Below are positions 15,466 to 44,677 of a DNA stretch of 64,000 nt, piece by piece; positions within the stretch are counted from its first letter, which is position 1; each line of letters starts with the position of its first letter. The stretch is from an uncultured bacterium (GTDB taxonomy: Bacteria > Oederibacteriota > Oederibacteriia > Oederibacteriales > Oederibacteriaceae). The notes beneath the pieces are model-generated. The model had not been told where the DNA came from. It saw nothing but the letters and a program-made list of their open reading frames with translations, and searched no databases. The stretch is taken from assembly GCA_965112635.1 (NCBI GenBank), contig OZ218778.1, positions 2,336,001-2,400,000 of the forward strand, read 5' to 3'. The translations under genes were made by a program, and so were the position numbers.

Positions 15466-16054
15466 ACTTTTCCTCGTCACCCTGTTCGATGGGATAGCGG
15501 GCTTCTTTCCACATATCCCAACCCCCAAAAAAAACACAAACTTTCTTGTAACCAAAATCCCACAGCACCTCAGCAGCTTCCTTGGATAGATTGCACTCTG
15601 TCCCATGACAATAAGTGACAATGAGCTTGTTTTTGTTTTTCTTCAAAAGCTTAAAAACTCCGCCCGGGTCTTTAGAGATTACGGGCGAAGGGATAGCTCC
15701 TCGAATGTGTCCGGTTAAATACTCCTCATAGGACCTTGCATCTATAAATATAGTCTTTTTGCTCTTGAATAAAATCAAAGCCGTAGCAAGATTAATGGTT
15801 TTAATCTGCTGTTTAGATGAAGCGGGCTGTAATAAATTTTGATTAACAAAAATTATTTCCCTTTTATCATTTGGAATACGCTTTGATGTGACATGTCTAC
15901 CCTGATCCACAACAGGACCAGATTGAGGTTCTGTTAAATAATATACGCGCACCTGATTAATCACTGCCAATATTATAGAGATGAACAAAATGAGCAAGGA
16001 CTGCAGTATTATATCTTTAACTTTTTGATCTAGCAAAATAACTCTAATTTGCAT
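15449..16054 (-). CDS. membrane-anchored rhodanese-like domain protein
   Basis: N-terminal TM helix; FIDAR, GHIRGA, active loop YCHGTEC, FFGGWDMW. Confidence 0.88.
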   Translation of the reverse strand: MQIRVILLDQKVKDIILQSLLILFISIILAVINQVRVYYLTEPQSGPVVDQGRHVTSKRIPNDKREIIFVNQNLLQPASSKQQIKTINLATALILFKSKKTIFIDARSYEEYLTGHIRGAIPSPVISKDPGGVFKLLKKNKNKLIVTYCHGTECNLSKEAAEVLWDFGYKKVCVFFGGWDMWKEARYPIEQGDEEKYVKKK

Positions 16055-17192
16055 GGCCCCTTCTTTTTATATTGAACCGGTCGATACCGAACGGCTTGAT
16101 AATGTCCGAAGTTCGGCCTGATAATATTAACGCTGATATCTCCTGCGCTGTAATAGGAGTCAAAAGTATTCCTTTCCTAAAATGACCTGTTGCTAAAATG
16201 TACCCCTGAATAGGTGTTAAACCCAAAATGGGCCACCGGTCGGGCGCGGCTGGTCGCAACCCGCTTTCTACGCTTTCCATTCTGTAATTTTTTATTCCAG
16301 GATAGGTCTGAAGTGCCATCTTTAGCAAGCGATACACACCTTCGGGCGTAGAGGTTTTGTCAAAACCGACATCTTCTTCTATGGAGCCTAAGATCAAAGT
16401 ACCGTCTTTACGAGGAACTAAATAGCATCCCTTGGAAAAAACAACATTTTTTAGGTGGGAACGGTGCGCTGTATTGCTTATCCGCAAATTAACCCGCTGC
16501 CCCCTGATAGGGATGATGGGAACTTTTAAAGAAGGAACGCACAAAGAGGGCTTCCCAGCCCATGACCCTGCTGCGTTAATGACCCAGGCAGCTTTGAAAC
16601 TACCACACTTGGTTTTCACGCCCTCAACAACCGTCTGCTCTTCTAGTAGACCGACGACCTCTTGCTTCTCTTGAATATTGACATTGAATAACTTGCAGGC
16701 AGACAACAACGCCATCGTCAGTTTCCGGTTATCCACCTGATGGTCATTGTGTACATAAAAACCTCCTAAAAAAGAACTAGACACCCCAGGCCAATGGGCC
16801 AACATATCCTTTTTAGACATCCTGTCATAAACAAGCCCTCTTTTGTTTTGCCACATAAACTGGGATACAAGTTTTTTCTCTTCGGTTTGTTTATACACAG
16901 GATACAAGACGCCCGTCGGGATGTAATCGGCAGTTAACCCGGTAAAGTTTTCAAGCTCTCGTATAAAGGCAGGGTATAAAAGGCTACTTGCTTGATTTAA
17001 TAGGAAAAAATCGTCATTTTCAAAGGATTCGCCATAAGGCAACAACATTCCTGCAGCGGCAAAGGAAGCCTCCCTACCTATTAGTCCCCGTTCCAGGATG
17101 GTTATTTTTAGTTTTTTCTGGGACAACCGCCAGGCTATTGCCAAACCTATGATACCACCACCAATAATGATAACATCCGACTGGTTTTTCAT
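16044..17192 (-). CDS. thiO: glycine oxidase ThiO-like FAD oxidoreductase
   Basis: GGGIIG FAD motif, EASFAAAGML, VDNRKL, PIRGQ, YLVPR, GLRP, ATGHFRKGILLTP. Confidence 0.85.
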   Translation of the reverse strand: MKNQSDVIIIGGGIIGLAIAWRLSQKKLKITILERGLIGREASFAAAGMLLPYGESFENDDFFLLNQASSLLYPAFIRELENFTGLTADYIPTGVLYPVYKQTEEKKLVSQFMWQNKRGLVYDRMSKKDMLAHWPGVSSSFLGGFYVHNDHQVDNRKLTMALLSACKLFNVNIQEKQEVVGLLEEQTVVEGVKTKCGSFKAAWVINAAGSWAGKPSLCVPSLKVPIIPIRGQRVNLRISNTAHRSHLKNVVFSKGCYLVPRKDGTLILGSIEEDVGFDKTSTPEGVYRLLKMALQTYPGIKNYRMESVESGLRPAAPDRWPILGLTPIQGYILATGHFRKGILLTPITAQEISALILSGRTSDIIKPFGIDRFNIKRRGHAN

Positions 17193-17209: not shown

Positions 17210-17812
17210 TTACCCGATCTGTCCGAACTCCCTGACCCGGAATTCAGCGCCAAGTTCGCGTGCTATTGTTTCGCATGCCTTGATATCTATAGTTGGTAAT
17301 CCCACCACAGTGACCACTACCCTTGGTATATATTTTGTGCACTCACCAATAAAATCCAAGACCCCCTGGAAAGCTGCCTCCCCGAATTCTGGCCTGCATA
17401 AGGCAACATATTTTTCTTTGTTTTCAGCGTTGAGGCTTATGGAAACAGCTCCCAGAAATCTGGCCAGGCCCGGAACAATATTGGTTTTATGAATCAGATT
17501 TCCATGCCCATTAGTGTTTAGCCTGATATTTCCGCCCGATTTTTTCAAAGCCATCCCCACTTGATTCAGGCAATCTAATCGCAGAGTCGGCTCACCAAAA
17601 CCGCAAAAAACAACCTCTTTATATTGTTTAGTATCCCCCACTGCCCTTATAATTTCTTCGGCTGATGGTTCCTTGGCTAAGCTCAGGTCAAATCCCTGGA
17701 CAATCGGTTTTTTTTTACGATCACAAAAAAGACACTCTGAAGTACACCGATTAGTAATATTGAGATATAGAGACTCTCTGATTTTATAGACAAAAATGGG
17801 ACGTTCAGTCAT
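17210..17812 (-). CDS. TatD-associated-type radical SAM protein
   Basis: LYLNITNRC, CxxxCxxC (CTSECLFC), VFCGFGEPT, RLNTNGHG, SISLNA; probable start ATG 17812. Confidence 0.85.
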   Translation of the reverse strand: MTERPIFVYKIRESLYLNITNRCTSECLFCDRKKKPIVQGFDLSLAKEPSAEEIIRAVGDTKQYKEVVFCGFGEPTLRLDCLNQVGMALKKSGGNIRLNTNGHGNLIHKTNIVPGLARFLGAVSISLNAENKEKYVALCRPEFGEAAFQGVLDFIGECTKYIPRVVVTVVGLPTIDIKACETIARELGAEFRVREFGQIG

Positions 17813-17835
17813 CTGCACAACCCTTTGCTCAATAG

Positions 17836-18906
17836 TTAATAGCTCTTGGGGTAGTAACAATTTTCGTAAGCGGTCTTGTACATAGCCAAAATATTCTCTA
17901 GAGGCGCGTCTGGTTGAATGTAAGTATGGGAGGGACCTAGGATAAACCCCCCGCCATTTCCCAAAAGTCTGAATTTATTTAAGACCTCATTTCTTACGTC
18001 CCCAGGATTGCCCTTCCGTAGAATATTTAAAATATCTACGGAACCATAAAAAGTAATATCTTTTCCAAAATCTCTTTTTAGCCCTTCTGGTTCCATGCCC
18101 ACAGCCGTAGTTTGTATCGGCTCAAGGATGTCCACCCCTGCCTCAATGAGTTCCGGCATCAATTTCCTGACACTACCACACACATGGAGCAGAAATTTTT
18201 TTTGGTGTTTATGCAAAATATCAGAGATTGTCTGTAGGTATGGCTTAACATATTCCCGGAACATGGGGACTGAAATCATCGGCCCCTGAGCAGTACAAAA
18301 ATCATCAGCCATATAATAAATATCGAAAAATGGGCCAGCCTCAGAACACAGCCGTTCGACCGCCGGAAACATATAATGGGTTATCTTTCCTAAAATGGCT
18401 TTGGCTAGAGCCGGATTCTCAGCCATATCCATCAAAAAATTTGTCAGTCCCCTCATAAAAGTGGCGTTAAAAAAACATCCATGGGTGATATCCGCAATGA
18501 CCGCAACATCGGGATATCTCTGTCGGGCGGTCTTGATATTTTCATATGTAGTTTCATCAACGGTCGGCCAGGGATAGGCTTCAATCTCCTCGACCGTGTT
18601 TAAATTCCCCAGGGGATGATAAGCAATCTCGTATAAATAGCCGAAATCGTACTTCACTTTTCGTGTCCCATACCCCCAGAAACAAGTACTAATTCCTCCC
18701 GGCCTCTCACCGATATTTTTGAAATGATGGGTAACTTGTACTTCGCGGGTATCAGCGTGCACGGCTTTCCACAACTCATCATCTGTCTTGATTTTAAAAT
18801 GCTCTTTGAGTATAACCTTGACTTCCGCTTCGCAATCAAAAGTAATGGGCACCCTGTCCGGTTCTTTGTGACCCACTGCAGTCAAAACTCTGGCTCTTCC
18901 ATCCAT
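17836..18906 (-). CDS. uroporphyrinogen decarboxylase / MtaA-CmuA-like TIM-barrel protein
   Basis: KEPDRVP, ATFMRG..NFLMDM, ADDF...GPMIS, LHVCG, LEPIQ, GGGFILGPSH..QPDAPLEN. Confidence 0.85.
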   Translation of the reverse strand: MDGRARVLTAVGHKEPDRVPITFDCEAEVKVILKEHFKIKTDDELWKAVHADTREVQVTHHFKNIGERPGGISTCFWGYGTRKVKYDFGYLYEIAYHPLGNLNTVEEIEAYPWPTVDETTYENIKTARQRYPDVAVIADITHGCFFNATFMRGLTNFLMDMAENPALAKAILGKITHYMFPAVERLCSEAGPFFDIYYMADDFCTAQGPMISVPMFREYVKPYLQTISDILHKHQKKFLLHVCGSVRKLMPELIEAGVDILEPIQTTAVGMEPEGLKRDFGKDITFYGSVDILNILRKGNPGDVRNEVLNKFRLLGNGGGFILGPSHTYIQPDAPLENILAMYKTAYENCYYPKSY

Positions 18907-18934
18907 AATACTAGCCTAACCTTTCGTTTCGTTC

Positions 18935-20245
18935 TTACTTGGTCAGATCGTATGTCCCGCTCTTCTCACCGAACACGCCCCATTTATCCAAAGCTTTTTT
19001 TAGCTCTCGGTTGGATTCGGCCGCAACCCTGAGCGGAGTATGGCTTAAAGTAGCTTTGATGGCCTGGTAAAAAGCTTTCACCCCGGCCACTACCCCGTCC
19101 GGATGCGCGTGTATCCCCCCACCAGCACCAATAAGAAAATCGTTCCCAAAATACTCCATCATTTCAGTAACCATGCCAGGATAATTCCCGGCCGCTGGCC
19201 CAGGCAGAACCTTTTTCAGGTTATACATGGGATAAGTCAATTCATGTGCCACCCGTACGGCTTTTTCTTTCACTAATGGTACCTTGCCAAAGGGTCCGGG
19301 GTAAATTAGCATGTCGGCCCCGCTCAACCTCAAAAATTTTCCAAAAATAAGATTGGAGGTAAGGCCATAAAGAGGCGACTCAAACTGGCTTCCTGCGTAG
19401 GCTGGATGGGCCAAGATCGGCAGTTCTATCTGTTTATTTTCAGCCAATTCTTGTAAAGCGCCATATCCAACGGCATAGGCGTTGACCATAAGAGCATTAC
19501 CTCCCATCTTTTGGACCTTTAATGCTTTTTTGACCATAAGTGATGGGGTATCGGTCACATTGATGGTATAAAGCGTCTTCTTGCCGGTCTGCTTACAAGC
19601 CTTTTGGATGCCCTTCATGCATTCGCTTAATCTCGCTTCCACGGAACAAAATTCTGGATCGGCTAACAACTCGTCGTCCTTGATAATATCAATCCCTCCC
19701 ATAGCCATCTCATAGACCAACTTTCCCGCAGTCTTCGCAGAGATTCCCACACAAGGCTTGATCATTCCACATAAGAGGGGGCGTCCATGAACATCCAAAA
19801 GCTTCCGGATACCCGCGATGCCAAATTTTGGTCCTTGAAAATGGCTGACAAAAGATTTGGGAAGAAAAACATCTAGCAATTTAAGCCGGCTGAGCATGGA
19901 AATATTGCCGTATAGCGTCGTAATCAATTCTGGTATTTGATAATTGATATTAATGATCGGGAACGCAACAATAATAATGAATTTACGGGTCTTCACTTCA
20001 GGCGGAACCATATCTTCGTAACTAGGTACTTCATGGACCCCGATGACCCGTCCGCCGCTAACTTTCTTGACCGTATCTGTATCTTCTGGGACCGGTTGCC
20101 ACGTTCCGGTTGTTTGCTCAACGGCCAAAGCAGCCGACCGCATTAAGAGATCCGATGTTTCAGCTTCAGAATAATAAATGGCCAGGATATATTTTTCTTT
20201 GTCCAAACCTTCAAAAATATCAAAGGTAAAAGGATCATATCTCAT
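18935..20245 (-). CDS. RuBisCO-like protein (Form IV)
   Basis: EQTTGTW, GPKFGIAGIR, IKDDE carbamate motif, GGGIHAHPDG; substitutions relative to Forms I-III (KPC for KPK, HPA for HRA, no HxGT). Confidence 0.93.
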   Translation of the reverse strand: MRYDPFTFDIFEGLDKEKYILAIYYSEAETSDLLMRSAALAVEQTTGTWQPVPEDTDTVKKVSGGRVIGVHEVPSYEDMVPPEVKTRKFIIIVAFPIININYQIPELITTLYGNISMLSRLKLLDVFLPKSFVSHFQGPKFGIAGIRKLLDVHGRPLLCGMIKPCVGISAKTAGKLVYEMAMGGIDIIKDDELLADPEFCSVEARLSECMKGIQKACKQTGKKTLYTINVTDTPSLMVKKALKVQKMGGNALMVNAYAVGYGALQELAENKQIELPILAHPAYAGSQFESPLYGLTSNLIFGKFLRLSGADMLIYPGPFGKVPLVKEKAVRVAHELTYPMYNLKKVLPGPAAGNYPGMVTEMMEYFGNDFLIGAGGGIHAHPDGVVAGVKAFYQAIKATLSHTPLRVAAESNRELKKALDKWGVFGEKSGTYDLTK

Positions 20246-20436: not shown

Positions 20437-20895
20437 ATGGAAAAGAACACAGGGTGGCTTGAGAAAAGAAAGCACGAGCGGGTGGATGTCGTAATAAAGA
20501 TAAAATTTACCCCGCTTAATGAGAAAGAAATATCCAGCCTTAATATTAAAGAAAATTATCAGTCAGTGGACAGCACAGTGTTGTCCGAATTTTCTAAACA
20601 AGAAAAGACCCTCGAAGCCATAACCCAGGATATTGGATCGGGGGGCATCATGATAGTCAGCAATACGCCACTATTTTTTGGTCAAAAGCTTCTAATAGAA
20701 ATGGTTTTGCCCAATGCAAGAAGGACATTGAGGGCACTGGTGAGAGTGGTCCGCGTTCAGGAAGACAGAGGCAAAGCTGCACCGGCTTATCGAGCAGCCA
20801 TCCAGATCATCTCGATCAATCAGGCAGACCTCGAGGATCTAGAGCGTTTTGTACAGAATCAGATCATGAAAGACATCTTAAAAAAGATGACGTAG
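20437..20895 (+). CDS. PilZ-domain protein (candidate c-di-GMP receptor)
   Basis: EKRKHER (RxxxR) and DIGSGG motif. Confidence 0.8.
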   Translation: MEKNTGWLEKRKHERVDVVIKIKFTPLNEKEISSLNIKENYQSVDSTVLSEFSKQEKTLEAITQDIGSGGIMIVSNTPLFFGQKLLIEMVLPNARRTLRALVRVVRVQEDRGKAAPAYRAAIQIISINQADLEDLERFVQNQIMKDILKKMT

Positions 20896-37661: not shown

Positions 37662-38975
37662 TCATGGCTCTAGCTTAGTCGTTACTTCGTTTGACACTAC
37701 TGAACATTCCTTCCCTTTGGACTTATAAATAGCCGTGGCATGCCCTGCTTCCTCTCCCTCCCCATTATTTTTCCTGCCAGCAATGTAATATATTTCTCCT
37801 CTAGAATTCCGTGAAACAGGGCCCTTGATAAGGAATCGGATCTCATTCTTTTCAGAATTATATTTTCCTCCCTTGGAAATTCCCTTCAACTCCAAAAAGG
37901 AAGGTAAAATATCAGTTAAAACCAATCCTTCTTTTAATAATGAGTTCGCTTTCCACTTTATCTGATAGGTCAAGGACATTTCATTATTGTCCTCGTAAGA
38001 TACAGCCAGAGACTTGGTTAATTCCACATCGGCTGATGGAGTGGTTGTAGCAACTGCCTCCTGTACCCCTGGCTTAAAAGAGTAAACCTCTACGGTTGTA
38101 GGGGTATTCATGGCCGGTAAAGGTGACGGGCTGGGTTTAGGAGTAAAAATAAAAACCTGCGTGGCTTTTGGTGTTGGTGGAAGCGGAATCTCTGTCAACG
38201 ATGGCGAGGGAATAACTTCTGTGAAAACAACAATCCGGGTCGGGATTTCCGTCGGCGTAGCGGCCATGGTCGGGCTGAAGGGAGGCGTTTCCGTTGCTGT
38301 CAACACAGTTGTATAAGACGGAATAGGGGTTTGGGTGAAAGTTACAGTGTCTGGCGGCGTGGCTGTCGGAGTTGGAAAATCCAACCGGAACTTTCGACGG
38401 TAATAGTTGTTGCTATTGTCATATCCATTGTCAGACTTGCCGTCTGGAAAAAAGTTTAGAGCATTGATGGTTAATCCAGTGTCTGGATTTTGTGGCAAGG
38501 GGAACTTCACATGCTCTACGATATTTACGGGAGCATCCCAGCTACTATCATCAAAATCATATTTAGCCCAGTCCGGAGCTGGAGCATTTAGATCCTGGCC
38601 AGGAGGAATTGCTCCTCTTGGGTCACCTGGTCCATAGCGTAACGATTTCCAACCAGCATCTTCATCATCGCTGGCCTTATAGATCGTCCTTCCAGAGTCC
38701 GTGTGTATAATGAGAAGAAAACCTATTCCTTGAGGTCCTCCATAATTATAATCCTGCGCTGCCAAAATATTTTCCGTCTTAAACAGGCTTGGGGCTACTG
38801 CAGTTTTTGACAGAACCTGTATACCGCAATAAGTAATCGTTTTTCCATTGAGGTAGATTATTCCCGTATCATCCGCCGCAGCATCTATTTCTGCGCTAAC
38901 TATCTTCTCAGCAGAGCTAATTCTGAAAAATAAAAAGAATAAAACCGTCGATAAAATTACATATTTTTTCATCAT
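37662..38975 (-). CDS. exported lectin-like / Pro-Thr linker / DUF11-like protein (paralog 1)
   Basis: Signal peptide; AADD..IYLNG, FDDSSW, YYRRKF; PT-rich linker; C-terminal LTK..TDILP..SNEVTTKLEP. Confidence 0.75.
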   Translation of the reverse strand: MMKKYVILSTVLFFLFFRISSAEKIVSAEIDAAADDTGIIYLNGKTITYCGIQVLSKTAVAPSLFKTENILAAQDYNYGGPQGIGFLLIIHTDSGRTIYKASDDEDAGWKSLRYGPGDPRGAIPPGQDLNAPAPDWAKYDFDDSSWDAPVNIVEHVKFPLPQNPDTGLTINALNFFPDGKSDNGYDNSNNYYRRKFRLDFPTPTATPPDTVTFTQTPIPSYTTVLTATETPPFSPTMAATPTEIPTRIVVFTEVIPSPSLTEIPLPPTPKATQVFIFTPKPSPSPLPAMNTPTTVEVYSFKPGVQEAVATTTPSADVELTKSLAVSYEDNNEMSLTYQIKWKANSLLKEGLVLTDILPSFLELKGISKGGKYNSEKNEIRFLIKGPVSRNSRGEIYYIAGRKNNGEGEEAGHATAIYKSKGKECSVVSNEVTTKLEP

Positions 38976-38982
38976 ATCAAAC

Positions 38983-40536
38983 CTACTTGTTTTGCTCAGT
39001 TGGTTCGATCTTAGTGATAACCTCGTTAGAGCTCACTGAGTAAAGGATATTATGATAAACATAAATGCCTGTGGCTTTACTCCGGAATATATCTTTGCCC
39101 GGGGGCATTGTTTGATCAAGTCCTCTTTTCATAACATAGAAAAGTTCTCCCGACATACCTTTGACAACAGGCTCCCTGAGGATAAACACGATCTCTCGGC
39201 GTACTGGATCGTATTCGCCACCTTCAGTGAATCCTCTTAACTCGAGGAATTCAGGCAACTTATCAACGATTTTAAATCCATTTTTCAGGTCTATAGGGCT
39301 GAACCAGCTTATTTTATAGGTATACCTTTGCTCATTCTTATCAGTGTATACAAGAGCCAGGGTTTTAACCAAAAACAGCTGGACAGGGGTCACCGTCAAG
39401 GTCATTTCCGGGGTACCGCGTCGCATGACCCGGATGAACTCCTGAGTAGGGACACGCACTGGGGTCGGAGGTAAAGTCGGCTGGGGGACTGCCGTGAACG
39501 CTTTAGCAGGTATTGGAGCTTGGGTATAGGTGGATGTTGGCGGCATAGGCGTAAAGGTTCGAGTAGCTGGTACCGTATTGGTCGGAACAGGCGTAAAGGC
39601 CTGGGTAAAGGTATTGGTGGGCGGCACGGTATTGGTCGGCACCGGAGTGAACCCGGGCACCGTGGGCCTCGGAGTAGCCGTAGGCAGCGGCGTGCTGGTA
39701 TTCACCGCCGTCGCCGAGAACGTAAAGGTCAATGGAGGCACTTTCGTCGCCGTCGAGGTCGGTATCGGCACCGGCGTCTCCGTCTGCGTGTAAGTGGCCG
39801 TGTCCGTAGGCCATAGGTTGAAATGCCTGCGGTAATAGTCTATGTCGTTGCCGCTGGTCTGCGAGATCGTGTGCTCGTAACTTGACAGCACTCCTATCCC
39901 CATCCCCGACTCGGGGTTTATCACCGCCGTCATATAATTGGGAGCATCGTAAATGGTGCTGTTCCACTCGGAATCGTTAAATCCATAGTTCAACCAACCC
40001 TTGGGCCCCAGTTCCGCGTAGTCCCGGTAGGGAAACTCCCTCCCGGCCGCCACATCCGCTTTGGTCAGGTATCCGGTGGACTGGTCATTGCCTTTGGAGA
40101 TCATCAGAAGAATGTCATCCGGGTTGTGCAGCATTTTCGTGTCTTCAACGGATTCCTGGCTGGATTCCAAATACCATTCTTTCCCGTTGTCCAGCTTGAC
40201 GTGAAGGAGGTAAAAAATGCTCATGGATTGAGGCTCGCGGTTGTAATTCTTCATGCAGAGCACGTCGCTGGCATTCAATATATCCGGCGGAATGGACCTG
40301 GCCGTGCAGGTCAACGGATACATCGGCGGATAATGCGGATAAACACGGTATTTGTCGTTAGCGGTCATCGTCACGTCCAACCAGACCGGGTAGCCGTTGA
40401 CCCAGGCGTCCCCGGCGTCGTCGAACTGACAAAGAATGTCCGCTTCCACCGCTTTGGTGGCGAAATTTTTTGGAACAAAGCTAACAGCAAAAAGAATAAA
40501 AAAAAATAAAACAGCAATTATTGATTTAACTCTCAC
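38983..40536 (-). CDS. exported lectin-like / Pro-Thr linker / DUF11-like protein (paralog 2)
   Basis: Probable GTG start at 40536; FDD..AWVNG, FNDSEW, YYRRHF; long PT linker; LVKTLAL..VDKLP..VSSNEVITKIEP. Confidence 0.75.
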   Translation of the reverse strand: MRVKSIIAVLFFFILFAVSFVPKNFATKAVEADILCQFDDAGDAWVNGYPVWLDVTMTANDKYRVYPHYPPMYPLTCTARSIPPDILNASDVLCMKNYNREPQSMSIFYLLHVKLDNGKEWYLESSQESVEDTKMLHNPDDILLMISKGNDQSTGYLTKADVAAGREFPYRDYAELGPKGWLNYGFNDSEWNSTIYDAPNYMTAVINPESGMGIGVLSSYEHTISQTSGNDIDYYRRHFNLWPTDTATYTQTETPVPIPTSTATKVPPLTFTFSATAVNTSTPLPTATPRPTVPGFTPVPTNTVPPTNTFTQAFTPVPTNTVPATRTFTPMPPTSTYTQAPIPAKAFTAVPQPTLPPTPVRVPTQEFIRVMRRGTPEMTLTVTPVQLFLVKTLALVYTDKNEQRYTYKISWFSPIDLKNGFKIVDKLPEFLELRGFTEGGEYDPVRREIVFILREPVVKGMSGELFYVMKRGLDQTMPPGKDIFRSKATGIYVYHNILYSVSSNEVITKIEPTEQNK

Positions 40537-40629
40537 TGTGACTGCTCCAGAAGTAATCCTTATGTGCTGCCATGAAGGGTAAAAATAATGATCACCCACG
40601 AATTGACCGCGTAAAATCTCGAATTGGTC

Positions 40630-42066
40630 TTATTTTTTATTCTGATCTTGAGGTTCTACTTTTGTAATGACTTCATTTGAACTTACCGAATATAAAATAT
40701 CGTTAAAGACATAGATTCCCGTAGCCCTGCTTCGAGCCGTCCCTTTATCCGGGGCAATAATTTGGTCCAGCCCTCTCTTCATAATGAAAAACAACTCGCC
40801 AGTCGACCCCCTGACAATAGGACCGGGTACTTTGAATTCAATTCTATGAGTATCTGCATGATATTTACCGCCCTGAGTATATCCATTGATTTCTAAAAAA
40901 TCTGGAAGTTGGTCAACTATTTTAAATCCAGTCTCCAGCTCTATTGGACAGAACCAATTTATCTTGTACATATAATTTTGTTCATTCTTATCTTTGTAGT
41001 CCAGCGCCAAAGTCTTCACCAGGACCAACTGGACCGGAGTCGCGGTAAATGTGATTGCAGGGGTCCCCCGAGCAATGAGTAAAACAAAAGGTCTTGTAGG
41101 AACCTCCCGCGGTGTCGGAGCAAGGGTTGCCGGAGGGATAGGTGGAGGCGCCTTGCGTACCGCAGGTATCGGCGTATTCGTAGGAGTAAAAGGAACCGGC
41201 GTAAAAGTCAACATAAGCGGTACCGGCGTTGCCGTTGGCATTGGAGTGGCCGTGAAAACAGGCGTGAACGTCGCCATTGGCAAGGCAGTGCTGGTTGGCA
41301 CCGGCGTAAACACAGGCGGCATTGTTGCTGTCGGCATAGGGGTTGAGGTCGGCAGTGGCGTGGCGGTCTTTAGGGGCGTAGCCGTCTGGGTCGAGGTATT
41401 TGCCGGTTTGGGAGTGGCCGTACCTGATGGGGTGCTGGTGGCAGTGTCCGCAGGCACAGGGGTCGGTTCTTCAATAGGAAGGGTTATCAATACTCTATAA
41501 TAATCCATTTCATTGGCAAGGTTTGGATTATTGCCATGTTCATGGCTGGAAATGGCATCTACAGGAGAGTCCGTGCAAGGATTCTTAAAAATATCACCGC
41601 CACGCTGTGATGGGGTTTGAAAAACTACACCACCCCACCCTGAATCATCAAAATCTATTTTTCTCCAACCCTGAGGATCTGCGGCAGGCGCATCAGGAAA
41701 ATGCATAAGCTTTGTATCAGGTTGATGTTCACCACTATCCACGCAAATCGTCTGCCCGTTATCTAGTTTTAATATAAGGATATACTCGCAATCGACGCTC
41801 TGTGGCTCATGATTCCAATTCTTGATGCAAAGGATGGTCTTGTTGTGAAAAACACTGGGAGGGATAGTATTGAGAGTCGTGGCATTATTATTATTCCGAG
41901 TTGCTGCAGGATAATCGAAGATCCAGGCTTCAGCCCCATCGTCTCCTGCCAAATGAAAAGTTGCCTCAACCACCTTTGTGCCTTCAAGGGGATTGGAACA
42001 AATTATGCCTAACAAAAGAATGAAAATAGCGGCAATTAATTTGGGACCACAATTCAATCGACTCAT
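40630..42066 (-). CDS. exported lectin-like / Pro-Thr linker / DUF11-like protein (paralog 3)
   Basis: ATG 42066 with AGGAG RBS; GDD..AWI, FDDSGW, YYRV; PT linker; LVKTLAL..VDQLP..VSSNEVITKVEP. Confidence 0.75.
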   Translation of the reverse strand: MSRLNCGPKLIAAIFILLLGIICSNPLEGTKVVEATFHLAGDDGAEAWIFDYPAATRNNNNATTLNTIPPSVFHNKTILCIKNWNHEPQSVDCEYILILKLDNGQTICVDSGEHQPDTKLMHFPDAPAADPQGWRKIDFDDSGWGGVVFQTPSQRGGDIFKNPCTDSPVDAISSHEHGNNPNLANEMDYYRVLITLPIEEPTPVPADTATSTPSGTATPKPANTSTQTATPLKTATPLPTSTPMPTATMPPVFTPVPTSTALPMATFTPVFTATPMPTATPVPLMLTFTPVPFTPTNTPIPAVRKAPPPIPPATLAPTPREVPTRPFVLLIARGTPAITFTATPVQLVLVKTLALDYKDKNEQNYMYKINWFCPIELETGFKIVDQLPDFLEINGYTQGGKYHADTHRIEFKVPGPIVRGSTGELFFIMKRGLDQIIAPDKGTARSRATGIYVFNDILYSVSSNEVITKVEPQDQNKK

Positions 42067-42085
42067 GAAACTCCTAAATAGCACT

Positions 42086-44677
42086 TCAGTACCCTCTTGC
42101 TTGCTGAAGGTTTTTAGCATAACTATCATTGTTCGGCTCTAACTGGCTCGCTCTTTCTAGCTCCCTAACCCCTCGTTCCCTTTTCCCAAAATACATGAGA
42201 AGCATGCCTAAATTTTCATGGGCCACACTATTTTGGTCGTCCAACTGCACGGATTTTTGTGCATACTGAAGAGCACTTGAGTATTGGCCCAGACGAATAT
42301 AAACAACCGACAAATTACATAAATTGGGCGAATTAACATCACCGACCGCCATAGCTTTAAGGTATTCTTTTAAAGCCAGCTCGTATTGCTGGTCTCTCAA
42401 ATACTGATAAGCTCTAGTGGAGGGCAGGAACGCCTTGGGCAACTGCTGCCCTTTGACCTCGCCCTGGAAATCTATCCTATAAACCCCTGACCCCTTCGAG
42501 TCATACAAAATCTGCAGATGCTTTTCCCAAAACTCCCGTAAAAGCGGGTAATCTTCCCTTTCCAAGGGAAAAATGTCATATTGCATCTGCAAACGCGTTG
42601 TTTCCATATCATTATATAGGATATAGTCCACATTAAAAGGCCTGAGGGCCTTTTCCAGCTGTTTGATATTCCTGCTTTTTTTGATTGCCACCCAAAGAGG
42701 GTTGTTATTATAAGCGGTACAGGAAATAAAATTTTGCTGAAGATAAAACCCCCTGGTTTCCCCTACGAACAGAACCTTGGCCTCCTTTGGAAGATTTTTA
42801 TTGGCATACTCTAGCGAATCATAAGAGGAATTCATCATCCATTTTTTAAGATAATTGGATTGGCTCTCTAGCCCTAAAACAGTGCCCCAGGGATCCAAAT
42901 TGCCCCATAACAAAACTGCGCCGCTGAACATATTGGCTAAAGAAACAATAAATATAATCACCACTGCTACAAAACCCAGCCATTTGGAGTTTTTGGTAGC
43001 AACATAAACAACATAGCAGGAAATTAAACACATCAGAGCTAAGCCTGGCTCGAAAAACCGAAGAATATGGGTTTGGGAGAGCCAAATAACTAGTGAAAAC
43101 AGAAAAAGGATAACCACGATCCGCATATACCGCGGTAGATTTTTTATAAAAAGTAAAAAAGGCAAAAACAACAGTAACAAAGGGCCAACTAAAGAATCTC
43201 CCGTATCGCCTTTTATGGTAAGGTTCCAAGGCAGCGCCAAATACTCCGCAAAAGTATGGGCCCACTTTTCATGTTGTTCACCAAGCACATGGTTAAGCTT
43301 TTGTGGGTCTATCTGCCATGTACCAAGGATTGAGCCTAGATAGGGAAAAAAGGGGTTACCGGTAAAGACAAAGTTCTTAATCCAATACACTAATAATGGT
43401 GTCAAAAAAACAATACCGGCAATCAAGGTATTCTTCAAAAGGGTCGAGCGCCGAATATTTAAGAACCAAGAAGCTTCGTACCCGCATATCAAAAATAAGG
43501 GAATGACCCAGAAAACTGCATTGTACTTGGTCATAACAGCATAGGAGGACAAAATTACGATGATATATAAACATGGCAATGCCGCCCCGGATGACACTTC
43601 CCCTTTATTAACTGGTTCTTGTGAATATATTTTTAGGAAGGCGGAAACAGCATTTAGAACAAAAAAAGTCATCCCCAGGTCCACGGCGGCTTCCCACGAA
43701 CTGACTTGAACAATAGGGATTGTATAAAACATGACTGCAGCCATAAAACCGACCATTTGATTAAAATATTTATTGCCCAGATCAAAAAGAATAAAACAAC
43801 AACCCAAACCTAAAAACCAGCATAATAACTTGCTTACCATTTCACTATGCAGCAGGCTTCCCAGACAAAAAAGCATTTCCAAGCCCATAGAATAATTTGA
43901 AAAAAAATTTGATGGGATTTGGTAGATTTTATGATGCTGGATAAATGAAAAAGGCACCGACAAATGATACACAAGGGCGTCATAAAACCTTTCGGGTGCC
44001 AACTGGCCTGCTAGGTTATTTGCAGCAGTTAGAAATAATAAGCAAAGCAAAACCAGGGAAATCTTGTCCATAATAAAAGGCTTAAGTTTGGCTAGGGAAA
44101 TTCGTCGCCACCTTTTTTGATAGATGAACTTCTCTAAAAAAACAGTGCAAAAAAATAAGACCAAAAGGCATGCTACTAGAGGAAATAAAAGGCCAGCCAA
44201 ACCCAAAGCGAATACTAAAAGAGAAGTCAAACCCAGACCCAGGGATAATTTTAACCACCCAGACTGATTAAGAGGTAAGAAGATACCTAATAGCGCTAGA
44301 ATTTTATCGCCTAACTCGAGTGCGGATAAAAGAAGAATAAAAAGCCACCCCAAAGCAGCTGTGTAGTGGCCAAATAATTGAAATTGTTGATTGAGACCCA
44401 ATCCGCCTGGATAACGGCTCCAATCAAAGATTCTTTTAAGGACTTCCCAGGTACGATACAACCATTGAAAATCTATCAAAGAATAAACAGATTCGCCCCA
44501 CAAAGAGAACAAAGAACCTTTAACAGCTTCCAAGGATACGGTCTTCCAGGCAACTGCTATATAAATGGGGATCAAGAAGAGGGCCCATAAACAAAAAATA
44601 ATGCTAAAGAGGCTTGCAGGGATCCTTAACTCTCCGCAAATTATCGCCTGTTTATTATGCAATTCGGATTGATTCAT
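42086..44677 (-). CDS. multi-pass GT-C-fold (GT39/ArnT/PMT-like) glycosyltransferase with C-terminal TPRs
   Basis: Many TM helices; PERFYDALVYHL loop motif, VDL, TKY, W.KN..FTGNPFFP, RF..P, LFVGETR; TPRs at the C-terminus. Confidence 0.75.
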   Translation of the reverse strand: MNQSELHNKQAIICGELRIPASLFSIIFCLWALFLIPIYIAVAWKTVSLEAVKGSLFSLWGESVYSLIDFQWLYRTWEVLKRIFDWSRYPGGLGLNQQFQLFGHYTAALGWLFILLLSALELGDKILALLGIFLPLNQSGWLKLSLGLGLTSLLVFALGLAGLLFPLVACLLVLFFCTVFLEKFIYQKRWRRISLAKLKPFIMDKISLVLLCLLFLTAANNLAGQLAPERFYDALVYHLSVPFSFIQHHKIYQIPSNFFSNYSMGLEMLFCLGSLLHSEMVSKLLCWFLGLGCCFILFDLGNKYFNQMVGFMAAVMFYTIPIVQVSSWEAAVDLGMTFFVLNAVSAFLKIYSQEPVNKGEVSSGAALPCLYIIVILSSYAVMTKYNAVFWVIPLFLICGYEASWFLNIRRSTLLKNTLIAGIVFLTPLLVYWIKNFVFTGNPFFPYLGSILGTWQIDPQKLNHVLGEQHEKWAHTFAEYLALPWNLTIKGDTGDSLVGPLLLLFLPFLLFIKNLPRYMRIVVILFLFSLVIWLSQTHILRFFEPGLALMCLISCYVVYVATKNSKWLGFVAVVIIFIVSLANMFSGAVLLWGNLDPWGTVLGLESQSNYLKKWMMNSSYDSLEYANKNLPKEAKVLFVGETRGFYLQQNFISCTAYNNNPLWVAIKKSRNIKQLEKALRPFNVDYILYNDMETTRLQMQYDIFPLEREDYPLLREFWEKHLQILYDSKGSGVYRIDFQGEVKGQQLPKAFLPSTRAYQYLRDQQYELALKEYLKAMAVGDVNSPNLCNLSVVYIRLGQYSSALQYAQKSVQLDDQNSVAHENLGMLLMYFGKRERGVRELERASQLEPNNDSYAKNLQQARGY

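Follow-up and report, generated by a model that had tools for sequence, protein, structure and literature searches.

The question raised by the locus described here is which reaction a Form IV RuBisCO-like protein (RLP) catalyzes, and with which partner enzyme it acts. The RLP (P0001, 436 aa) is encoded at positions 18935 to 20245, on the minus strand, of a 64,000-nucleotide stretch of DNA, hereafter the window, which spans positions 2,336,001 to 2,400,000 of contig OZ218778.1 (assembly GCA_965112635.1) of an uncultured bacterium of the phylum Oederibacteriota. It is recognized by Pfam RuBisCO_large (E 3e-49), and its AlphaFold model has a predicted local distance difference test score of 95.2. 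The host genome, G000, is a single contig of 2.88 Mb that is 97% complete; it carries one RLP and 18 URO-D-family genes, one of which (P0002, 356 aa, positions 17836 to 18906, minus strand; Pfam URO-D, E 5e-25) lies directly downstream of the RLP. The original prediction, made from the sequence of the window, was that the RLP and this UroD/MtaA-fold protein perform consecutive steps on a phosphorylated sugar acid or a methylated substrate. That pairing is wrong, and the locus leads instead to a more specific and testable question: the RLP subclade has a newly identified, tightly co-inherited partner, which is encoded elsewhere in the genome.

Co-inheritance of the RLP with a LeuA-like Synthase

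The subclade to which P0001 belongs lies within a larger group of RLPs that we call the KPC clade (see below). In 7 of 18 loci holding a member of this subclade, the next gene after the RLP encodes a 460-aa LeuA/homocitrate-synthase-like protein. Its ortholog in G000 (P0122, 64% identity) is a DRE-TIM enzyme distinct from the genome's own leuA and cimA products, and is encoded outside the window, at C1:1100049-1101437, 1.25 Mb from the RLP gene. Across 99 genomes of the phylum, an RLP match is found in 20 and a synthase match in 20, with both at threshold in 18; in a 19th genome (G248), the synthase gene directly follows an RLP fragment at a contig edge. The final tally is 19 genomes with both genes, 77 with neither, two with the RLP only and one with the synthase only. 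Of the RLP-only genomes, one (G244) has 236 bp between the end of its RLP and a contig edge, and the other (G038) is 76% complete; in the synthase-only genome (G246) the gene starts at base 1 of its contig. The 60 genomes that are at least 90% complete comprise 11 with both genes, 49 with neither, and none with one.

Among 201 Elusimicrobiota genomes, the RLP occurs in two and the synthase in the same two, one of which was the search center. In family f2, G001 alone carries either gene, and it carries both. The 22 genomes with both genes include 11 in which they are adjacent, the RLP preceding the synthase, 2 in which they are split at contig edges, and 9 in which they lie apart; two named genomes give them consecutive locus tags (AUJ67_09280/09275 and A2044_00450/00445). 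In addition, 11 of 69 RLP records agree with one of 120 synthase records in the size of the longest contig. Paired RLP and synthase trees from 17 genomes are correlated (Mantel r 0.73, 0 of 5000 permutations), and two separate acquisitions by Elusimicrobiota are mirrored in both. Nine genomes with an RLP of the KDDH type, named for its metal-site motif, have neither a KPC-subclade RLP nor the synthase. No ortholog of the synthase is present in viral contigs (best match 35%) or plasmids (best about 33%). These data show that the RLP subclade travels with one specific LeuA/homocitrate-synthase-like enzyme, and it is very likely that the two catalyze steps of one pathway.

The UroD-like Neighbor

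The RLP and UroD-like genes are both on the minus strand and are separated by a 28-bp spacer (positions 18907 to 18934), as originally described. The HVCG and GPSH motifs ascribed to the UroD-like protein are likewise present in its translation, MtaA (4AY7) having Cys at the GPSH position. Conservation of the adjacency was examined in 102 loci with RLP homologs (2 from GTDB contigs, by a single-protein scan, 20 from relatives and 80 from metagenomes) using a hidden Markov model (HMM) built from the 18 UroD paralogs of G000. A UroD gene is found in none of the 102; of the 101 loci in which the RLP is complete, 85 have at least 1.1 kb of downstream DNA, as do 16 of the 18 from its own subclade. 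Six further RLP loci also lack a UroD gene. No match to P0002 is seen at E ≤ 1e-3 in G041 and G042, both RLP-bearing Elusimicrobiota genomes, or at 1e-30 in G001, G010, G016, G033, and G038, and the closest relatives of P0002 (41–43% identity) lie on other contigs that are RLP-free. P0002 itself keeps H-x-C, lacks the third Cys of MtaA, and scores 64 bits against MtaA/MtbA cutoffs of 235–244. The UroD-like gene is an incidental neighbor of the RLP. Two outcomes had been named in advance as speaking jointly against the pairing, loss of the adjacency and grouping of the RLP with the methionine salvage enolase MtnW; the adjacency is indeed lost, while the RLP does not group inside MtnW, as the following section shows.

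Identity and Phylogeny of the RLP

P0001 is a real Form IV RLP that belongs to an uncharacterized subclade. It combines the RuBisCO large-chain fold and the carbamate-Lys/Asp/Glu metal site with replacement of K177, R295, H298, and H327, the residues of ribulose 1,5-bisphosphate (RuBP) binding and carboxylation. Its best matches are MtnW enolases (E 9e-92), its best fold match is 2OEM (TM score 0.88, 36% identity), and many of its relatives carry the MtnW name in JGI. Nevertheless, it falls below both MtnW cutoffs (387.9 vs 409 bits for PRK09549 and 336.6 vs 513.6 bits for TIGR03332), as well as below those of the type III RuBisCO model (236 vs 497 bits) and the OiaX model NF042437 (208.7 vs 700 bits). 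RLP trees of 164 sequences (FastTree) and 44 sequences (IQ-TREE) were built with annotated plasmid genes and KDDH-type relatives as references, without Rlp1 of Rhodospirillum rubrum, OiaT, or the hamamelose RLP. Both trees place P0001 in the large KPC clade, which excludes MtnW. In the IQ-TREE analysis, this clade has an ultrafast bootstrap (UFBoot) value of 99; the MtnW pair, which consists of the two MtnW references, has 100, and its sister link to the KPC clade is weak (68). The phylogenetic placement called for by the original prediction thus puts the RLP outside MtnW, and together with the HMM scores and the presence of Asn at the Lys98 position of MtnW it bears out the view of a genuine Form IV protein of unassigned function. 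Within the KPC clade, the P0001 subclade (UFBoot 90) comprises about 76 clusters at 90% identity, its size being set by a score gap, with named members in Firestonebacteria, Elusimicrobiota, Desantisbacteria, Nitrospirota, and Omnitrophica.

Other branches have neighborhoods of their own. In the sister branches the RLP is accompanied by genes for an FGGY kinase (49 loci), a saccharopine-dehydrogenase-like protein (27), or a class III aminotransferase (23), or by GlpABC-like and phosphotransferase system (PTS) genes, or by Tm-1 and phosphoenolpyruvate (PEP)-hydrolase genes. In L075 and L077, a KPC-clade RLP gene is preceded by GlpABC-like genes and followed by one for a PHP-domain protein, and L075 has PTS genes as well; this is a candidate sugar-alcohol phosphate route, the GlpABC and PTS names having been read from sequence. 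In L125, L134, L143, and L150, a KPC-clade RLP stands beside PEP-hydrolase-like, Tm-1-like, and 2-phosphosulfolactate-phosphatase-family genes. Phosphatase genes (inositol monophosphatase, histidine phosphatase, HAD-like) flank the RLP loci L054, L056, L057, L074, and L099, and a PhyH-family dioxygenase gene follows the RLP locus in L057. A separate RLP type with KPCVG and HRDF motifs and no K334 (GGY) occurs in other families of the phylum (L067, L070, L071, L044, and L048); three of these loci place it after clpB, a peptidase-like gene, and a gene for a membrane protein. Fusions seen among distant representatives (ribose-bisphosphate-isomerase-family, cupin, and TIR) fall in other clades: P0496 is an RLP that carries a TIR domain at its N terminus and has FDDE instead of KDDE, and P0491 and P0519 are Form III-type RuBisCOs fused to an IF-2B-family isomerase.

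Active Site of the RLP

Residue numbers follow those of spinach RuBisCO, placed by alignment to Form III-type sequences. P0001 keeps the equivalents of E60, T65, N123, K175, K201, D203, E204, H294, K334, G381, G403, and G404; K177 is replaced by Cys, R295 by Pro, H298 by Ala, and H327 by Ile, and the S379 position is Ala. The motifs originally quoted, IKPCVG (K163, C165), KDDE (189–192), YGNIS (N114), HPAYAG (H280, P281), FGKVP (K321), and PGPAAG, are all found in the translation. The residues flagged as unusual are real, but they are clade-wide traits rather than peculiarities of P0001. In 41 subclade sequences, C165 and P281, at the K177 and R295 positions, are found in every one, H298 and H327 are lost, and S379 varies among Ser (21 of 41), Ala, and Gly. 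Also invariant are E43, T48, K189, D191, E192, H280, K321, G353, G375, and G376, which correspond to E60, T65, K201, D203, E204, H294, K334, G381, G403, and G404, and the N123 and K175 equivalents (N114 and K163) are present in 40.

This residue survey indicates that the metal site, the first phosphate site, and the carboxylate-stabilizing residues are kept, and that the second phosphate site is lost. P0001 probably acts on a singly phosphorylated substrate, and its residues suggest an enzyme that binds Mg2+, takes a ketose 1-phosphate whose tail is neutral, and is able to handle a carboxylate. The phosphorylated substrate of the original prediction is upheld to this extent, but not as one shared with the UroD-like enzyme. 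The E60, N123, and K334 equivalents are absent from MtnW, and K334 is absent from the KDDH-type RLPs. K334 is kept without K177 in OiaX and in DUF1537-linked plasmid RLPs, which shows that carboxylate chemistry can survive the loss of K177. The H-P motif at positions 294/295 is common to the P0001 subclade, MtnW, and the KDDH type, and most FGGY-linked members have H-M-D or H-L-D.

The Partner Synthase

The synthase consists of a DRE-TIM barrel and subdomain II (Pfam HMGL-like and HCS_D2) with no regulatory domain, and the two orthologs tested score below all 13 NCBIfam models matched. P0122 has the features of a DRE-TIM acetyl-CoA Claisen synthase, namely R-D-x-E-Q, H-x-H, the carboxylate-binding Thr, and the His and Tyr of subdomain II; the catalytic residues R39, D40, E42, T228, H256, H258, H352, and Y363 are present in 55 of 55 homologs. 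The pocket is equally constant, with L133, E194, A196, C224, and S226 in all 55 and M105 in 54. Table 1 of PMC12961565 gives the pocket of homocitrate synthase as His/Arg/Thr/Ser/His and that of LeuA as Leu/Glu/Ser/Asn/Glu. The positions that align to the homocitrate synthase pocket are Met/Glu/Ala/Cys/Gly-or-Ser in the synthase, which is without the His/Arg/His that bind acidic substrates. Because these basic residues are missing, the pocket would suit a small neutral side chain, and its residues suggest that the synthase joins acetyl-CoA to a 2-oxo acid that is small and neutral. The top structural matches are homocitrate synthase 6KTQ and the plant methylthioalkylmalate synthase (MAM) 6E1J. 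Comparison of L133/E194/C224/S226 with V182/E223/A253/P255 of BjMAM1 is compatible with, and not diagnostic of, the use of a methylthio 2-oxo acid.

Established roles for such an enzyme are already filled in G000, where LeuA, CimA, Si-citrate synthase, and LysA cover citrate, lysine, leucine, and isoleucine synthesis. We rejected a stand-in Re-citrate synthase, as Si-citrate synthase is present in G000 and in 10 of 15 carriers (a comparison made without a Re-citrate synthase reference); a homocitrate synthase for lysine, as the pocket differs, lysA is present, and there is no second LeuC-type gene; and the genome's LeuA or CimA, as these are separate and the orthologs are below all cutoffs. 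A phosphorylated or acidic substrate, such as phosphohydroxypyruvate or 2-oxoglutarate, is disfavored by the lack of a basic pocket residue. Since the genes for DXS and KdsA are both present, we set aside the idea that the RLP replaces DXS or that the pair replaces KdsA.

In G000, the synthase gene stands behind an aldo-keto reductase gene in a cluster of DegT-type aminotransferases, glycosyltransferases, and a GHMP kinase (L152, G000:C1:1094777-1111044), which also includes a heptose-isomerase-like gene and one for a nucleotidyltransferase; the synthase gene looks like an insertion there and not like a native member. A second synthase paralog, 41% identical and near nitrogenase cofactor-like genes (L179, G033:C87), is probably NifV.

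A Candidate Route of Methionine Salvage

The features of the two enzymes allow us to propose, tentatively, a full oxygen-independent route of methionine salvage. Spermidine synthase would release 5'-methylthioadenosine (MTA), which a phosphorylase and MtnA would convert to 5-methylthioribulose-1-phosphate. The RLP would enolize this compound, add CO2 at C2, and hydrolyze the C2–C3 bond in the manner of RuBisCO, to give 3-phosphoglycerate and, from C3–C5, D-3-methylthiolactate. A GlcD/D-lactate-dehydrogenase-type flavoenzyme would oxidize methylthiolactate to 3-methylthiopyruvate, which the synthase, followed by the single LeuCD and LeuB, would lengthen by one carbon to 4-methylthio-2-oxobutanoate, and a transaminase would then form methionine. 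The same RLP might alternatively convert 5-deoxyribulose-1-phosphate to 3-phosphoglycerate and D-lactate. Methylthioribulose-1-phosphate is favored because methylthiolactate, once oxidized and lengthened by one carbon, is the keto acid of methionine, which would make a dedicated synthase necessary. That a Form IV RLP fixes CO2 onto methylthioribulose-1-phosphate and, with its dedicated synthase, makes up a new oxygen-independent salvage in which the C–S bond stays intact is a possibility to which we give somewhat less credence than to the route in outline.

Two spermidine synthases are present in G000, with a single LeuC and a single LeuB, and its mtnA adjoins the sole PNP/MTAP-family phosphorylase gene. 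The phosphorylase has Asp in its TDxC motif, which we take to be the 6-aminopurine type. No MtnB over the cutoff is found in G000 (best 71.6 vs 137 bits), and MtnX is not seen beside RLP homologs, no genome-wide search for it having been made; the earlier statement that mtn genes are missing near the RLP agrees with the open reading frames (ORFs) of the window, among which none was recognized on checking the list by eye, without a profile scan. No MTA deaminase is evident, the two matches obtained being assigned to the amidohydrolase family, and no class II aldolase lies beside mtnA among the matches listed (20 loci). In G045, the synthase gene overlaps a gene for a GlcD-like D-2-hydroxyacid dehydrogenase, which was found after the route was proposed; a GlcD-like homolog is present in 14 of 15 synthase-bearing genomes and was not detected in G033. 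In R. rubrum, methylthiolactate and S-methylcysteine are described as arising from MTA in a RuBisCO-dependent manner (North et al. 2016, PMC4958253).

Across the phylum, a PNP-scoring phosphorylase gene with Asp in TDxC precedes mtnA, usually after proC (L154:761-2692, L222–L241). G000 also has a bacterial microcompartment locus (L153, G000:C1:2538513-2547053) with a class II aldolase, an aldehyde dehydrogenase, and an acetate-kinase-like gene; it reads from sequence as fucose/rhamnose-type, and its aldolase is the genome's best, sub-cutoff MtnB match.

A number of observations weigh against this route or against parts of it. The phosphorylase scores as a PNP (370 bits) and not as an MTAP (83 vs 275). 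Neither mtnA nor the phosphorylase gene was seen beside the RLP or the synthase at any locus examined, and L052 is the only subclade locus with a spermidine synthase gene close to the RLP. Moreover, mtnA is present in 38 of 41 phylum genomes and the spermidine synthase family in all 41, so nearly universal that neither discriminates, and 15 of the 41 genomes have no RLP match of any kind. The GlcD-like link consists of one adjacency, and the family is also present in 7 of 26 synthase-free genomes and missed in G033. In the RLP, K177 is replaced by Cys, and the retention of K334, E60, and N123 extends to the FGGY-, GlpABC-, and Tm-1-linked sister branches and is therefore not specific to the pairing. 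RLPs are described in PMC4958253 as unable to carboxylate, and the same account has carboxylation-dead RuBisCO mutants still supporting growth of R. rubrum on MTA, so that its methylthiolactate need not derive from carboxylation. As to the pairing itself, the RLP of G017 is discordant in the paired trees, and related genomes are not independent; we put weight on the Elusimicrobiota and within-family contrasts rather than on p-values. The synthase seems to have a wider distribution than the RLP subclade, with Nitrospirales-labeled clusters of 175, 55, and 50 members and further Acidobacteriota- and Vulcanimicrobiota-rich Atlas clusters, against 25 members in the largest RLP-subclade cluster, its occurrence elsewhere without the RLP being judged from cluster sizes only. 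Finally, synthases that lie apart from the RLP often neighbor cell-envelope genes, which makes a non-sulfur substrate as likely as the methylthio route.

In that case the same pair would work on a non-sulfur ketose 1-phosphate, such as ribulose-1-phosphate or 5-deoxyribulose-1-phosphate, which the RLP would split or decarboxylate, and the synthase would join acetyl-CoA to a neutral 2-oxo acid such as hydroxypyruvate, toward a homoserine precursor or a branched acid of the envelope. All of the evidence for the pairing applies equally here, and E194, S226, and C224 of the pocket would also fit a hydroxylated side chain. The synthase lies in a sugar-nucleotide/glycosyltransferase cluster in G000 and near envelope genes in several other genomes (neighbor names that were read from sequence and from BLAST to G000 ORFs, mostly without an HMM test), and some RLP loci are flanked by phosphatase genes. 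However, the envelope neighbors vary between lineages, CimA already takes care of pyruvate, glycerate does not call for chain elongation, and RLPs acting on methylthio sugars have the same H-P motif. It is rather unlikely that the RLP dispenses with CO2 chemistry altogether, serving as an isomerase, epimerase, or phosphate-eliminating tautomerase on methylthioribulose-1-phosphate or a related ketose 1-phosphate and feeding the synthase indirectly. The loss of K177 would agree with this, as would the kinase and PTS operons of the sister branches, where isomerization is a natural reading, and the two characterized H-P-motif RLPs are described as a tautomerase and a 1,3-isomerase (PMC6302742, PMC5893883). 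Those enzymes have, however, lost K334, which is invariant in the P0001 subclade; isomerization of a pentulose phosphate does not yield a 2-oxo acid, and a phosphate would find no basic residue in the pocket of the synthase.

Co-occurrence through shared ancestry, or through a co-mobile block of two genes whose enzymes serve unrelated pathways, would account for a presence pattern that largely follows families and for a synthase that seems to occur without a KPC-subclade RLP in other phyla. We regard it as improbable, since both genes are kept in the nine genomes in which they lie apart, including G045 (each gene being present in 2 of 201 Elusimicrobiota genomes), since G001 alone of f2 has either gene and has both, and since the near-complete genomes divide into 11 of 11 with both against 0 of 49. 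The reading in which the RLP works in sequence with the UroD-like barrel, on a sugar acid or a methylated compound, can draw on the 28-bp same-strand gap, on a chance of about 1.6% per gene of an immediate UroD neighbor in G000, and on the UroD expansions of many RLP-bearing relatives; set against the 102 and 6 loci and the genomes described above, and against a same-strand gene run that goes on into unrelated radical SAM and ThiO genes, it is very improbable. Least credible of all is that the RLP is MtnW, the 2,3-diketo-5-methylthiopentyl-1-phosphate enolase that serves methionine salvage of the Bacillus type, a label that its relatives carry in databases. MtnW is the best match by HMM, sequence, and fold, the JGI names follow it, and mtnA is present, but P0001 is below both cutoffs, has Asn at Lys98, and lies outside the MtnW clade; no MtnB over the cutoff is there to make the substrate, and the mtnX and mtnB neighbors of true mtnW loci are missing.

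Other Features of the Window

Downstream of the UroD-like gene and on the same minus strand lie a TatD-associated radical SAM protein gene (positions 17210 to 17860; TIGR04038, 262 bits vs a cutoff of 129.7) and a glycine oxidase gene, thiO (positions 16044 to 17192; TIGR02352, 299 vs 250.8 bits), for which no link to the RLP was seen. The upstream boundary of the RLP transcription unit is set by a divergent PilZ-domain gene identified by Pfam (positions 20437 to 20895, plus strand). Promoter and terminator scans gave no signal above chance level. Local shifts in GC skew mark positions 37665–44677, where divergent genes that look extracellular stand in a row together with one for a large membrane protein.

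Significance

No description of an RLP paired with a LeuA-like synthase, or of such a pathway, was found among the results listed by full-text literature searches, whose coverage excluded most subscription papers, the Gerlt-lab RLP papers with their supplementary networks among them. Because both enzymes are soluble and the candidate substrates are few, an RLP branch that databases label MtnW becomes directly testable. Were the RLP to carboxylate a singly phosphorylated sugar, it would go against the rule that Form IV proteins are non-carboxylating. It would also bear on the origin of the RuBisCO carboxylase from an RLP ancestor, the current view according to PMC13454268, as a living example of the proposed step from a salvage RLP to RuBisCO, and it might account for the methylthiolactate seen when MTA is metabolized anaerobically (PMC4958253). 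Should the substrate proposed here prove wrong, the strict co-inheritance of an RLP with a Claisen synthase would still point to a pathway that we have not found described.

Comparison with Known Systems

The UroD-like protein shares its fold and the H-x-C motif with the methylcobamide:CoM methyltransferase MtaA (4AY7); it differs in the absent third Cys ligand and the low score given above, and it is one of 18 paralogs. We rejected its assignment as an MtaA/MtbA methyltransferase, since the distal Cys of the zinc site is absent and the cutoff is not reached.

With bona fide RuBisCO (Forms I–III), the RLP has in common the metal triad, E60, T65, N123, K175, H294, K334, and the glycines of the P1 site. 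The loss of K177, R295, H298, and H327 leaves no second-phosphate site for RuBP, and the RLP is not a bona fide RuBisCO by its residues at R295/H298/H327/S379 and K177. Its nearest characterized relative is MtnW/YkrW (2OEK/2OEM of Geobacillus kaustophilus and 2ZVI of Bacillus subtilis), with which it shares KDDE, K175, H-P at 294/295, a PSAG-type loop, and the first phosphate site. Lys98, which we take to be the general base of MtnW in place of N123, is Asn in the RLP (FGKLS of 2OEK aligns with YGNIS; Asn in 40 of 41). The RLP also keeps E60 and K334, has KPC instead of KG, forms a separate clade, and is partnered by a LeuA-like synthase and not by MtnB and MtnX.

The DeepYkr RLP of R. rubrum, the methylthioribulose-1-phosphate 1,3-isomerase of the MTA-isoprenoid shunt, has the same substrate as that proposed here, and N123 is kept in both. 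We assume this enzyme to be of the KDDH type, and its likeness in the H-P motif was seen in KDDH-type relatives that stand in for it. Judged by these stand-ins, the RLP differs in having KDDE rather than KDDH and K334 rather than Arg, and in forming a separate clade; no cupin methylsulfurylase was seen beside it, and other genomes from the phylum carry the KDDH type. On the same reference, the RLP was rejected as a DeepYkr isomerase, since it lacks KDDH, keeps K334, and lies outside the KDDH clade. The apiose RLPs OiaX and OiaT are a 3-oxo-isoapionate-4-phosphate decarboxylase and a transcarboxylase/hydrolase, respectively. OiaX and the DUF1537-linked RLPs resemble the RLP in keeping K334 and losing K177. 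An assignment to this type was rejected, as the RLP misses the NF042437 cutoff (208.7 vs 700 bits), has lost the R295 that this type keeps, and has no DUF1537 kinase gene nearby.

P0122, finally, resembles BjMAM1 (6E1J), homocitrate synthase (6KTQ), and LeuA in its DRE-TIM barrel, its subdomain II, and all of the Claisen catalytic residues. It is set apart from them by an identity of about 31%, an insertion of about 20 residues, and its own invariant pocket of M/L/E/A/C/S. MAM is described as lengthening methylthio 2-oxo acids by one carbon (PMC8468904), and the substrate proposed for P0122 would be one carbon shorter than that of MAM.

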